DNA from: a virus
DNA length: 17,604 bases
IMG/VR virus record: IMGVR_UViG_3300021400_000219
Location: 121,970 to 139,573 of that record
Reading direction: 5' to 3' (one strand)
Both the position numbers and the translations under genes were made by a program. The notes beneath the pieces were generated by a model, which ran no database searches, was not told the origin of the DNA, and worked only from the letters and a program-made list of their open reading frames with translations. Positions 402-11,725 of the stretch are shown in pieces. The number at the start of each line of letters is the position of its first letter. Within the stretch, counting starts at the first letter, position 1.

Positions 402-430
402 ATTATAACAAAAATTTTTTTGAAAATCAA
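402..430 (-). promoter_or_regulatory. Sigma-A-type promoter TTGATT-17-TATAAT for gene 1..367
   Basis: Hexamers and spacing read directly from the sequence. Confidence 0.5.
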
Positions 431-900
431 TAAAAACATTTAAAAAGGTAGTGAAATTGCCGAGCAAGATTTTCTCACGGAGAAACACTCATAAAGAGGT
501 AAAACGATATTAAATTGTAGGTTAAAAATGAAGCTTGGTAATCACCCCAGAGCAACCTCAGAAACGAGAAAATTTGAGGATTTGCTTTTTATAAAAATAT
601 ATAGTATAATATAAATGGGGGTAGTATCTTTACCGAGCACGTGGATTAGTATAATATACTATTTAATTAAATAAAATAACGTATAAAGTTTAGTTAAAAA
701 GTTATTTAATTTGATTTATTTTATTAAATATTTTATAATATAATGGGGAAATATTATTATTTTTTTAAAAAATAATAAAAATATCTAAGTATTATTATAT
801 ATAATAATATCTTTTTTATTTTATTATACCAAAAATTTTTTTAAAAATCAAATTTTTTTGTGTTTCCGATCGGAAAAAATAGTTTTTTTTAATATTATAA
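420..900. repeat. Extremely AT-rich block of about 480 bp, including a 20-bp perfect palindrome (TATTATTATATATAATAATA) and three GAAAATCAA repeats
   Basis: Base composition and repeats are visible by eye. No ORFs. Confidence 0.6.
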
Positions 901-1120: not shown

Positions 1121-1255
1121 CCGTGCGCCGGCGGTTCAAGGTGTGCCCTATTATGAGGGGTAAGCGTGTGAGCCCTTATAGCCTTAAAGGTATAAAGCTT
1201 TAAAGCTTTAAAGGTCTAGTTTTGCCCGGGCGAATTAGCGCAGGCTAACCGCAGG

Positions 1256-1292
1256 TAAAAATTAAACCCCCAGGGGTTTGGACCCCCTGGGG
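1256..1292 (-). terminator. Intrinsic terminator of the non-coding transcript
   Basis: 9-bp GC stem (CCCCAGGGG/CCCCTGGGG) followed by UUUAAUUUUU on the minus strand. Confidence 0.6.
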
Positions 1293-1586
1293 TAGGACCA
1301 TTTTTTGGCAGGTTGGTGTCCCTTCCACCTACGCTTGTTAAATAAATCCAGTAGGATACATGGTATCACCTCCATAGTATTTGAAACCACTCTTTGGCGG
1401 GCTGGCTTCTACTCCCATTCTATTACGTAAATCCAGAGTAATACATTTCTAAATCACCTCAACAATAATTTTTAATTCTTTAGTGTTTCGCTAGACGAAA
1501 CCTGTGGGGAACCTACGCATGGCCCTCTCTCCCTTCCTAGTCTATTCCGCAGGGGAGGTTTGGCGCCTTGCCCTCTCCCTTGGAAC
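1262..1586 (-). ncRNA. Candidate about 320-nt non-coding transcript bounded by a promoter and a terminator. It has a conserved leader (AUAAUUGUUCCAAGGGAGAGGG), a GTTTCG-tcta-CGAAAC tetraloop hairpin, and two tandem 7-codon mini-ORFs
   Basis: Promoter TTGACA-17-TATACT at 1593-1621 on the minus strand. Intrinsic terminator: hairpin CCCCAGGGG-N-CCCCTGGGG at 1267-1292 followed by UUUAAUUUUU. No ORF above 7 codons. Mini-ORFs MYYSGFT* and MYPTGFI* are each preceded by GAGGTGAT or GGAGGTGATACC. Confidence 0.5.
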
Positions 1587-1713
1587 AATTATAGTATAAC
1601 AGATAGGGCCGTATTTGTCAAGGGGTTTTTGAAAAAAATTTAATGGAATTTTCTGGAAGTTGCGCCCGGGCGCGTTAGCCTAAGCTAACTCCCAGATAAA
1701 GGGAAAGCGGGGA

Positions 1714-3878: not shown

Positions 3879-4229
3879 CTACTTTCTTTTTTGCGTCAAT
3901 GTCAACTCAAACTTCTTTCCGTCAACCTCAAAAGCAATAACTCTTTCCTTGTTAGTGATTTCAAGGTTATCAACGGAGTTAGTCAGAAAGTTAGCAATTT
4001 CCGCAATCAAATGGCCTTTGGTTTCGTTGGGTTTTCTTTCCCTTTTGGTGAATTTGTAAGCCGTAGGCTTTCTGTCTGCCTGCCTTGCTTTCTTTTCCAC
4101 CTTTTTCTGTTCAGCCGTCAAGGGGAACGGGTCTGCGCCCTTGTCGATTTCTTTATCAGTGGCAATGATTTCCATCGCTTCCTGTTCAGAAATATCAAGG
4201 ACTTTCATCAGTCTTTCCTTTTGGTTCAT
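3879..4229 (-). CDS. Family B protein, paralog 1 of 2 (116 aa), adjacent to a family A gene
   Basis: Start set to the internal ATG (codon 27 of the track ORF), which is preceded by AAGGGGTGATACC and promoter TTGACT-17-TATAAT at 4254-4282. Paralog of 9262..9615 with a shared KK..RQADRKP motif. The TAG stop is part of the TAGGGGGC/GCCCCCTA hairpin. Confidence 0.7.
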   Translation of the reverse strand: MNQKERLMKVLDISEQEAMEIIATDKEIDKGADPFPLTAEQKKVEKKARQADRKPTAYKFTKRERKPNETKGHLIAEIANFLTNSVDNLEITNKERVIAFEVDGKKFELTLTQKRK

Positions 4230-4282: not shown

Positions 4283-4363
4283 GATAAATTTGTTCGTCAA
4301 TTTGCACAAAAGTGGTTAGTATAGGCTAACCGCACCCGGGAGAGTTAGTGTGCGCTAACTTCC

Positions 4364-5069: not shown

Positions 5070-5145
5070 TGGGGGGTCTGCGCGCGGCGGCACCGGCCGT
5101 TATCGGGACGCGCGTGTGTGTGCGTGTGTCGCTTTAAAGAGCTAA
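5070..5145 (+). repeat. GC-rich element A, with alternating purine-pyrimidine runs: GCGCGCG...CCGGCCGTTA...CGCGCGTGTGTGTGCGTGTGTCGC...CTTTAAAG..CTAAAG
   Basis: One of five related copies. The others are at about 1085-1215, 10410-10480, 14045-14125 and 16950-17040. Each ends in CCCGGG or the gene-end hairpin. Confidence 0.55.
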
Positions 5146-5170
5146 AGCGCCCGGGAGAGTTAGCGAGGGC

Positions 5171-5458
5171 TTACCCCTCGCTCGTATCTACTCCCAGAAT
5201 AATCAACAGACTACAGATAGTGCCCCACGCATGGACGCCCATGTCCTCAGGGATTGCATCCCACACATCAGGATACAGACGGCGCACACCAGAGAGAAGC
5301 ATCCCGCCCCAGTTACCACCGCAAGCGGTACACAAGTCAAGGAAATCTTTAAAACTCATTTTAGTTTTCTGCGCCATGCACGCATAGACAACAACTTCAT
5401 CGCCCCACTCGTTCCGCACAGTATCAAGGGCTTCCATGAAATCAGAATGAAGAATCAT
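5171..5458 (-). CDS. Hypothetical protein (95 aa)
   Basis: Its start overlaps the stop of the upstream small basic gene (ATGA overlap at 5455-5458), with AAAGGAG 8 nt upstream. The TAA stop is in the loop of the CGAGGG/CCTCG hairpin. Confidence 0.65.
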   Translation of the reverse strand: MILHSDFMEALDTVRNEWGDEVVVYACMAQKTKMSFKDFLDLCTACGGNWGGMLLSGVRRLYPDVWDAIPEDMGVHAWGTICSLLIILGVDTSEG

Positions 5459-7805: not shown

Positions 7806-8117
7806 AGTATGCACTACCTTTCTCTGTTTTAACGAGTTCAGCTCTCAATCTGTTTTGTTCTTTCCCTTACTGTGGCTTTATTATACCACAGGTTCAGGGG
7901 TTTGTCAAGAGTTTTTTTGAATTTCTCTTGATTTTTTTGGAGCCATTTTTTAGGTGGGCTACTTCCAACACCCGACTGTTGGCGGTTTTTTAGGTGCGCT
8001 CCCTCACCCGACATCATTATATTACCACAGGTTGCTCCATTTGTCAAGGGTTTTTTCAAAAGTTTTTTCTGGAATTTCTACCAAGATTTTCCAGCGACCC
8101 GGGCGAGTTAGCGGGGG

Positions 8118-8495
8118 TTAACCCCGCTTGTACTCTTTAGTGCCCATAGAGTAAGGAATGTTGTACATCTCACAAGCTTCAATGGCGTACCCGATTGCCA
8201 GATTTGCCATTTCCTGGGCTTGCTCATACTTTCTGTTAGGGGTAATCTTGTAAAGAAAATGGTCATTCTGAACCTGTTCAAACAAGTAGGACATTTTCAG
8301 TCGTGCATGAGCTTCGACGGCAAGCCGCTCAGATTTGGTAGCTTTTGGCATTTTAATCCATGCTAAACACTGAAAATGTTCATTCTGTCTGATGCTGGAA
8401 AGACGCTGTGCTGGGGTGTCTTTGCCAGTTTCACCCAGCTTGAAAACACCATTCTTACGGCAGAAATAATTAAAACCAGTATAAAAGCAAGCCAT
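8118..8495 (-). CDS. Hypothetical protein (125 aa)
   Basis: ORF-track frame. Promoter TTGACA-17-TATACT at 8560-8588. The TAA stop is in the loop of the AGCGGGG/CCCCGCT hairpin next to CCCGGGCG. Confidence 0.65.
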   Translation of the reverse strand: MACFYTGFNYFCRKNGVFKLGETGKDTPAQRLSSIRQNEHFQCLAWIKMPKATKSERLAVEAHARLKMSYLFEQVQNDHFLYKITPNRKYEQAQEMANLAIGYAIEACEMYNIPYSMGTKEYKRG

Positions 8496-11341: not shown

Positions 11342-11485
11342 TCTGACCAACCCTTTCTTTAAAAGGTTTTTTATCTTTTCTGTATTATTATAATACCAAA
11401 TTTTTTTATAAAAGTCAATAGGGAATCGCAAATTTTAGAAGTTTGTGCAATTTGCACAAAAGCGCCCGGGCGAGTTACCCTGTGC

Positions 11486-11725
11486 TTACAAGGTAACTTT
11501 GCACTGTCTAAAATCATGCCACAGATGGGGCTGAGTCAGCGGAGACCGCAGGGAATAAGCTTGGTATTGCAAGAAAGATAAAATGCGGATTTCTGTTATT
11601 GTAGTTTCATCATCTAAATCAAACTTTTTATTTATTACAGAGCCGTGCAATCTGCCAGGGGTTTTTGCAAAAACTTTAGTAGTAAAACCAAACGGGTCCA
11701 TAATCTTAATCTCATAATAATTCAT
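11486..11725 (-). CDS. Hypothetical protein (79 aa). Second gene of an operon. Its 3' extent is uncertain
   Basis: ATG at 11723-11725, preceded by AAAGGAGAA 9 nt upstream. The C-terminal third reads through a hairpin-rich region, so the gene may be shorter than annotated. Confidence 0.45.
   Translation of the reverse strand: MNYYEIKIMDPFGFTTKVFAKTPGRLHGSVINKKFDLDDETTITEIRILSFLQYQAYSLRSPLTQPHLWHDFRQCKVTL

Follow-up and report, generated by a model that had tools for sequence, protein, structure and literature searches.

The micro-ORF unit

The element considered here is a short transcription unit on the minus strand of a 17,604-nucleotide (nt) stretch of viral DNA, positions 121,970 to 139,573 of the IMG/VR record IMGVR_UViG_3300021400_000219; this whole stretch is called the window below. 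A transcript of about 330 nt is delimited by a promoter at 1621-1593 and an intrinsic terminator at 1292-1257, and it carries three very short open reading frames (micro-ORFs), each led by a Shine-Dalgarno (SD) site. An earlier note on this DNA had placed the promoter at 1593-1621 and the terminator at 1256-1292, and both were recovered. It had also described two SD-led heptapeptide ORFs. Both are present, but a third one, MRRFPTGFV at 1520-1491, had been overlooked, and with its nine codons and its SD site GGGAGAGAGGG the statement that no ORF exceeds seven codons has to be given up. The heptapeptide ORFs, described as about 75 nt apart, measure 85 nt from start to start. Mechanically called ORFs of 38 and 42 amino acids (aa) with TTG or GTG starts are also present in the transcript, without SD site and not conserved. 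The unit consists of the following features.

1593-1621 (-): sigma-70-type promoter, with the -35 hexamer TTGACA at 1621-1616, a 17-nt spacer that includes the TG extension and the -10 hexamer TATACT at 1598-1593 (11 of 12 consensus positions).
1544-1586 (-): 5' leader hairpin, in which the SD-like purine-rich arm AAGGGAGAGGG pairs with CCUCCCC, in both the minimum free energy and the centroid folds.
1491-1533 (-): micro-ORF 1 (ORF1), SD GGGAGAGAGGG at 1533-1523, ATG at 1520, peptide MRRFPTGFV (9 codons), TAG stop at 1493-1491.
1420-1460 (-): micro-ORF 2 (ORF2), SD GAGGTGAT at 1460-1453, ATG at 1446, peptide MYYSGFT (1446-1423), tandem stops TAA TAG at 1425-1420.
1338-1373 (-): micro-ORF 3 (ORF3), SD GGAGGTGAT at 1373-1365, ATG at 1361, peptide MYPTGFI (1361-1338), TAA stop.
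1293-1337 (-): conserved 45-nt tail after ORF3, made of the hairpin AGGUGG-AAGGGACA-CCAACCU and then GCCAAAAAAUGG.
1257-1292 (-): intrinsic terminator CCCCAGGGG-loop-CCCCTGGGG, a 9-bp G+C-rich stem followed by the T-run UUUAAUUUUU.

The transcription unit is early, autonomous and driven by a strong promoter, and the three SD-led micro-ORFs are its only conserved coding content. The ORF1 stop sits in the loop of a hairpin, GGUUUCG/CGAAAC (1502-1485). The segment that follows ORF3 is about 94% conserved between the window and the relative L020, and the terminator stem shows compensatory variants in L020 and L098 (CCUCUGCGGG/CCGCAGAGG). The 5' hairpin overlaps a 22-nt leader at 1592-1571, and its segment is replaced or expanded in the relatives L011 and L021. 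This leader had been regarded as common to three protein-coding cassettes; an exact copy is found in one other cassette only (2232-2211), the others being loosely alike. It is purine-rich and resembles a 5' SD-like stabiliser of mRNA. Taken alone, the leader matches 8 large IMG/VR contigs, in which a different sequence follows it.

The three peptides fit the motif [FY]x[ST]GF[VITA]-stop, which occurs three times in the window compared with a mean of 0.007 in 1000 dinucleotide shuffles; when an ATG and an SD site are also required, the count is still three, and zero in the shuffles. The motif was defined post hoc from data already seen, a weakness that we consider to be covered by its independent recurrence elsewhere.

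Conservation of the peptides in related phages

The slot occupied by the cassette was reached by synteny, independently of the micro-ORFs, and along two routes. The first relied on exact copies of the upstream 122-aa protein (loci L010-L019) and the second on homologues of the downstream 163-aa protein with 65-96% identity (L020-L026 and L097-L099). Three-ORF cassettes are those of the window type and of L098. Two-ORF cassettes, with ORF1 and ORF2 and without ORF3, are found in L014, L021, L023/24, L097 and L099, and L020 has a one-ORF cassette with its own promoter, encoding MYPTGFV. In L014 and L098 an extra cassette with a 72-aa gene is inserted upstream of the micro-ORF cassette, at the junction repeat, and does not replace it. 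A normal protein gene at this place, with the mini-ORFs lost, was the outcome that the earlier note had named as fatal to its proposal; the homologous slots in the related phages retain the micro-ORFs, with no normal gene in their stead.

In the alignment derived from synteny, the first two positions of the core codons are invariant (0 of 34 sites variable), while the third position varies at 3 of 17 sites and the last sense codon at 3 of 9, compared with 68 of 219 sites in the rest of the transcript. ORF1 is kept in all the relatives with a two- or three-ORF cassette, its only changes being CCC/CCA, ACA/ACG and GTC/GCC. ORF2 varies synonymously by TAC/TAT and ACG/ACT/ACA, and by ACT/ATT, which turns Thr into Ile at the last residue. 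In the same way, ORF3 shows the synonymous variants CCT/CCA/CCG and GGA/GGG, together with ATT/GTT, a change of Ile to Val in L020 and L098. The substitutions within the core (CCC/CCA, ACA/ACG, TAC/TAT, CCT/CCA/CCG and GGA/GGG) are synonymous in six cases out of six, whereas 23.5% would be expected for random single-base changes in these codons (P ~2e-4), and only the last residue shows non-synonymous changes, all of them among V, I, T and A. In L021 unrelated sequence has taken the place of the ORF1 leader and SD site and brings a new AGGAGGT at the right distance, and ORF1 is kept. The AT-rich inter-ORF spacers diverge freely and are the least conserved parts of the transcript.

The alignment shows that the micro-ORFs are under selection at the level of their amino acids, and hence that their translation matters. 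We regard a translated, peptide-selected micro-ORF family as highly probable. The translation-based readings of the earlier note, leader peptide or ribosome stalling on the one hand and micropeptide on the other, are strengthened by this amino-acid-level selection, by the synonymous-only core changes and by the use of both TCN and AGY codons for Ser. On the contrary, its third suggestion, a ribosome-sequestering decoy RNA, loses ground, since a decoy made of SD sites only would not keep the peptide. Our findings go beyond that note in the number of ORFs, which is three, in the selection on the peptides and in their membership of a family.

A motif family beyond this phage

One metagenome scan (JGI) was run with the pattern GAGG-N5-11-ATG TAY YMN WSN GGN TTY RYN TAR and one genome scan (GTDB) with the same pattern ending in TRR; by a back-of-envelope estimate, roughly 15-30 chance matches were expected from the two. 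In contrast with this expectation, the scans yielded families. Group A comprises further relatives of the phage RNA (L028, L031, L033, L034). Group C (L038, L040, L042, L049) consists of phage-like contigs in which MKY[YF]TGFT and MYYTGF[ITV] stand in tandem, both ended by TAG and followed by a terminator; its RNA has the downstream element CCGCCAAACAAG in common with the RNA family of the window. A hairpin comparable to the one in the window tail, followed by CCGCCAAA(A/C)A, is found after the micro-ORFs of group C and of the two-ORF variants of group A. Moreover, partner ORFs that lie outside the search pattern carry the core as well, namely MRRFPTGFV in group A and MKY[YF]TGFT in group C. 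As a side observation, the divergent group A member L034 (~430-520, minus strand) has ORF1 and ORF2 in one frame, so that a suppressed ORF1 TAG would join the two (MRRFPTGFVqRNNKKLKMVEVLEMYYSGFT); every other variant has ORF2 in the +2 frame relative to ORF1.

Group B has MY[PSY]SGF[VIT] embedded in a conserved RNA that is about 340 nt long (L043:5636-5979 and some 40 further loci among L030-L096). At least 27 matches come from the metagenome-assembled genome (MAG) RGIG2907 (JAFRYG01, goat omasum), about 29 with likely metagenome duplicates, and others from UBA4248 (DGWW01, at least six) and a Myxococcota MAG (two). RNAalifold on 30 copies gave 55 pairs, 24 of them with compensatory changes, and a single-stranded stretch between helices holds the SD site and the ORF. 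Most group B copies end in TGA. A co-directional downstream gene, often a lipoprotein gene, is present in only about 70% of the copies, so that group B is probably no strict cis leader, and about a quarter face a convergent gene. A search with the 3' domain (nhmmer) retrieved 47 copies from the collected loci, all with the ORF, a weak result because these loci had themselves been collected via the ORF. Outside the ORF, group B and the phage RNA have no homology.

In group D, MYYTGFT stands upstream of a lipoprotein gene, and single intergenic cases were found at L027, L029, L037, L046, L051, L057, L063 and L076. Among these, L057 (a Ruminococcus MAG, upstream of a ParB-like gene) and L076 (a Christensenellaceae MAG) have positions like those of upstream ORFs. 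The simplest example is L063:7330-7470, from an uncultured-bacterium MAG, with a bare promoter-like site, GGAGGTG, the ORF MYPSGFV (ATG TAT CCC AGC GGA TTC GTC TAG) and a terminator 9 nt past the stop, and with no other ORF or structure. Matches at L044, L054/L071, L074, L078 and L087 are chance matches.

An SD site, an ATG, a length of 7-9 codons, the core at the stop and an intergenic position are found together in the three window ORFs and in 84 distinct units. Most of these 84 were found via a peptide-shaped pattern and many are interrelated, so that their counts are descriptive: ten codons, AGC and AGT among them, serve the Ser/Thr position and all four serve Gly, the stops are TAA in 35, TAG in 25 and TGA in 24, and a C follows the stop in 62.

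No covariance model of Rfam matched the whole window at the gathering threshold, and the matches in 1100-1750 were at chance level only (E ~0.6 or more), which is the outcome of the Rfam check that the earlier note had called for. In the same way, nothing was found by Rfam at the micro-ORF sites of 20 other loci, nor in group B under an E-value threshold. ARAGORN detected no tRNA or transfer-messenger RNA, scans of IMG/VR with three micro-ORF patterns gave 0 matches, and a full-text literature search for the peptide strings and related mini-ORF terms returned nothing relevant. The [F/Y]-x-[S/T]-G-F-[V/I/T/A]-stop micro-ORFs apparently form a widespread, undescribed family present in many unrelated RNA contexts, and their recurrence in unrelated phages and bacteria points to a portable micro-peptide module.

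How the micro-ORFs may act

The favoured mechanism is a pause at translation termination. The RNA would act through its translation: the stop-adjacent peptide core, as a nascent chain in the ribosome, would slow peptide release, and ribosomes, possibly together with release factors, would be held on an abundant RNA. With no cistron downstream in the phage RNA, what results would be an occupied ribosome or release factor, or a stabilised RNA, and not gene control in cis. To termination pausing that parks ribosomes, and possibly release factors, we assign a rough probability of 0.35-0.4. Two hints are that the motif is always anchored to the stop codon and that ORF length is restricted to 7-9 codons. 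A stop codon followed by C is a weak termination context in bacteria. Pausing is favoured because the short length, the core abutting the stop, the frequent stop+C, the distant lineages and the placement in an RNA scaffold, before a terminator or before a gene match short nascent peptides that act in the ribosomal tunnel at termination.

The closest comparison is MsrDL (MYLIFM), a hexapeptide whose nascent chain in the exit tunnel blocks both RF1 and RF2 at the stop (UAA); its ORF is followed by an intrinsic terminator, and it needs a macrolide and controls msrD in cis (PMC10314930). The likeness lies in a tiny SD-led ORF (6 codons in MsrDL), a hydrophobic and aromatic make-up, a Met-Tyr start and a terminator after the ORF. 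In contrast, the phage RNA has no downstream cistron, has another motif in three tandem copies and belongs to an accessory cassette of a phage, and an inducer and stalling are known for MsrDL only. Another peptide, PepNL, arrests at the stop through interference with the release factor, is relieved by stop-codon read-through and comprises at least 13 residues by the residue numbering of the paper (PMC11890864). PepNL and TnaC both arrest at the stop via the release factor, and the relief of PepNL by read-through is conceptually relevant to a TAG-ended ORF in a phage that later suppresses TAG. TnaC has 24 aa; unlike the micro-ORFs, which have no sequence similarity to them, both peptides are longer and regulate a downstream gene. 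Of the marks of an arrest-peptide attenuator (ErmCL, MsrDL or TnaC type), the micro-ORFs have one, an SD-led ORF with a conserved peptide, and the phage RNA does not have another, a regulated downstream cistron on the transcript. The bar minigenes of phage lambda are strong-SD ORFs in otherwise non-coding transcripts, and they cause peptidyl-tRNA drop-off and tRNA starvation. They are likewise phage-encoded, with a strong SD in an apparently non-coding RNA, and bar acts via the translation apparatus, but they have two codons and no conserved peptide, in contrast with the 7-9 codons and the selected peptide found here. In kind, the micro-ORFs would stand with leader peptides and other functional mini-ORFs; that they are something categorically new has a low probability.

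Several points weigh against termination pausing. The relatives L025 and L026 lack the cassette exactly between two CCCGGGC repeats, with nothing else changed, and the cassette is hence dispensable. Likeness of the phage micro-ORFs to known arrest motifs was judged by rough resemblance. The non-phage examples were mostly found with a pattern that presupposes the peptide, so that their conservation is partly ascertainment, and the C after the stop was counted over related sequences, which are not independent events. Tandem copies and stand-alone mini-genes without a downstream gene (L063 and the phage cassette) suit a released peptide equally well. Folding gave no convincing alternative pairings of terminator and antiterminator. 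Finally, compared with shuffles the transcript as a whole folds with no significant gain in stability (z = -1.5), and because of this modest stability the RNA, as modelled, looks more like an mRNA than a structured RNA.

A bolder version would make the core a universal, self-contained termination-arrest module and the abundant early RNA of the phage a sponge of RF1 or ribosomes or else a TAG-suppression sensor. RF1 trapped on the RNA would help to switch the infected cell from the standard code to one in which TAG means Gln, a switch whose mechanism is still open in the recoding literature (10.1101/2021.08.26.457843). The three phage ORFs use TAG, TAA and TAA as their stops and never TGA, though TGA ends half of the early genes of the phage. 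Nevertheless, this version is very improbable: relatives without the cassette are recoded too, the TGA ends of most group B copies fit it poorly, and the absence of TGA among five phage ORFs is only weakly significant.

If the family is real, a 7-codon ORF with a defined core is a portable module across phages, mobile elements, distant bacteria and a multi-copy structured RNA, invisible to gene callers, Rfam and small-protein catalogues. Under either mechanism, pausing or the released peptides discussed next, something new would be gained, be it a minimal effector that acts on the ribosome as a nascent peptide or a class of micropeptides that are encoded directly. Its presence in an early cassette of a TAG-recoded phage would also give a handle on how such phages manipulate termination.

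Other explanations

The main rival to pausing is that the RNA is simply a polycistronic mRNA and that its peptides of 7-9 residues, once released, are the effectors and reach a target of the host or the phage in trans; they might inhibit it, serve as signals or be precursors for modification elsewhere. The same amino-acid-level conservation applies to this reading, tandem and slightly different copies would raise the dose (each RNA of groups A and C has two to three ORFs), L063 consists of nothing but promoter, SD, ORF and terminator, and the unit behaves as an accessory cassette within an array of small early genes. Directly encoded peptides of this size include the microcin C precursor MccA (7 aa, MRTGNAN) and the biarylitide precursor BytA (5 aa, MRYYH), so functional genes of five to seven codons do exist. 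MccA has a C-terminal Asn and an adjacent MccB-like adenylating enzyme, while BytA has the pattern M-x-Y-x-H and an adjacent cytochrome P450. The micro-ORFs differ from the former in their C-terminus, which is V, I, T or A, and in that no MccB-like enzyme is found among the 35 window proteins searched with Pfam and PHROGs; they differ from the latter in that the Tyr-x-His motif is absent and the window has no P450. In insects, the tarsal-less/polished rice RNA has several tandem micro-ORFs with a common short motif, encoding peptides of 11-32 aa. Here the likeness is in architecture only, as these are eukaryotic and longer peptides with no homology.

On the other side, the Pfam and PHROGs searches found no modifying enzyme, exporter or receptor among those 35 proteins, and no P450 or radical-SAM gene, and the candidate of a precursor of ribosomally synthesized and post-translationally modified peptides was rejected for want of such enzymes. 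No gene of this kind is consistently adjacent in the other micro-ORF contexts either. Dose explains poorly why a single MAG has at least 27 near-identical peptides (about 29 with duplicates) in structured RNAs, and the conservation of a 7-mer in phyla far apart implies that its target is universal, the ribosome being the simplest candidate. A role of the released peptides is possible, though on this evidence we consider it somewhat unlikely.

Control in cis is a weaker alternative, in which translation of the micro-ORFs would set terminator read-through into the iteron-bearing, AT-rich, origin-like region and the 163-aa gene. Attenuators classically have an intrinsic terminator behind a short SD-led ORF, and here the gap is 45 nt after ORF3 and only 9 nt in L063. 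In group A a small hairpin begins about 9 nt past each stop, at the leading edge of a stop-bound ribosome, and some non-phage copies lie 35-100 nt upstream of a gene (L057, L076, L051 and group D). However, the next gene is about 900 nt away with promoter-like sites of its own before it, relatives without the cassette keep the downstream region unchanged, folding turned up no mutually exclusive helices and no convincing antiterminator pairing, and the convergent gene faced by about a quarter of the group B copies does not suit this reading. Such attenuation is improbable. Thus, of the leader-peptide or stalling proposal of the earlier note, the role for translation stands, but classical leader-peptide control in this phage is unlikely because the terminator comes after the ORFs, the next gene lies about 900 nt off with its own promoters and the cassette is absent in L025 and L026.

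A function of the RNA only, as an SD-rich decoy or sponge or as a base-pairing small RNA with incidental micro-ORFs, would fit the small-RNA-like layout, in which several GGA or SD-like motifs, a hairpin at the 5' end, a conserved one with an A-tract behind the ORFs and a terminator are present. It would not limit change to synonymous sites or have Ser written with TCN as well as AGY codons, the inter-ORF spacers would hardly be the least conserved parts, and Rfam has no match; we consider it highly unlikely. Least credible of all is a recoded 60-aa protein read under code 15 from ORF1 through two TAGs into ORF3: the phage is TAG-recoded, with neighbouring genes whose 5-7 in-frame TAGs align with Gln, ORF1 and ORF3 are in one frame in the window and the only stops that separate them are TAG, a 60-aa gene has been called in L011 (ENA) and a 3-nt indel between variants preserves the frame. 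However, when close variants are compared in this frame, a single synonymous change stands against four non-synonymous ones and an indel, a TGA interrupts the frame after 18 codons in the three-ORF variant L098, two-ORF variants run past the terminator or stop at varying places and ORF2 is conserved in a different frame, and the candidate was rejected on these grounds. Selection for an open read-through frame of ORF1 was suggestive in 14 variants and was also rejected, being broken by L098.

The cassette array and its recoded phage

The window is an array of small minus-strand gene cassettes, each led by a promoter. A scan with the pattern TTGACA, a 16-17-nt spacer and a TATAAT-like -10 hexamer, in most cases preceded by TG, gave 26 near-consensus sigma-70 promoters on the minus strand versus 4 on the plus strand of the window. 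An SD-led ORF of 34-154 codons comes within 150 nt after every promoter except two, namely the upstream one of a tandem pair (2261-2233) and that of the micro-ORF unit. The claim that the unit lacks a protein ORF is hence borne out, and apart from that tandem member it is the sole such case among the 26 promoter-led units. The tandem promoters stand 100 nt apart upstream of a family A gene (2133-2261), and the first carries the 22-nt leader ATAATTGTTCCAAGGGAGAGGG; the arrangement of promoter, leader and second promoter also occurs in eight IMG/VR contigs of 100-200 kb (L002-L009).

Few of the window proteins can be identified: two NT5C-type deoxyribonucleotidases, the winged-helix family A, an exonuclease-like PHROG and several unknowns. 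The A-B modules described earlier were found again, with four copies of family A and two of family B (45% identical), B following two of the other three A genes. The 122-aa family A protein encoded upstream of the micro-ORF cassette has copies on 19 metagenomic contigs. The phage probably comes from the rumen, because these contigs have the sample names STEW19, WILK20 and SHIW14 and the MAGs with micro-ORFs are from goat rumen and omasum. Among the INPHARED phages, none matched the whole window by megablast or the RNA by blastn.

The cassettes are bounded by repeats (families D13 and D16), and the two that flank the micro-ORF unit are listed here.

1224-1250 (-): downstream cassette-boundary repeat, TTAGC-N4-GCTAA...CCCGGGC.
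1664-1689 (-): upstream cassette-boundary repeat, TTAGC-N4-GCTAAC...CCCGGGC.

The repeat TTAGC-N4-GCTAA...CCCGGGC is present at every cassette junction, for instance at 4329-4359, 5144-5174, 8092-8122 and 11459-11489, and the junction repeats look like cassette-exchange sites.

Genes just past the left end of the window have 5-7 in-frame TAGs each and a terminal TAA, as seen in the following pair.

L010 8338-8724 and 9063-9686 (-): TAG-rich genes, with homologues in L011, L020 and L025.

As the in-frame TAGs of these neighbouring genes align with Gln in their homologues, the alignments indicate that this phage family reads TAG as Gln. Because of this reading, the TAG that ends ORF1 is a conditional stop, and its read-through late in infection is physically possible. 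In the window, mechanically called minus-strand ORFs of at least 60 aa stop at TAA in 21 cases, at TGA in 21 and at TAG in one. In recoded gut phages, early genes are compatible with the standard code, and the TAG-poor early cassettes of the window fit this published picture (10.1101/2021.08.26.457843). The family B gene at 3879-4229 (-) ends in TAG, and public gene calls in L010 and L011 add 12-13 codons past it, a possible C-terminal extension that differs between early and late infection in a recoded phage.

Downstream of the micro-ORF cassette, the segment 600-1140 of the window is an origin-like region conserved in L010-L099. It contains three iteron-like repeats CGTGTGAGC-N10-TGCATATGGGG at 939-966, 986-1013 and 1055-1082, and a G+C-rich palindrome that adjoins a stretch of 15% G+C (600-900) with several promoter-like AT-rich repeats.

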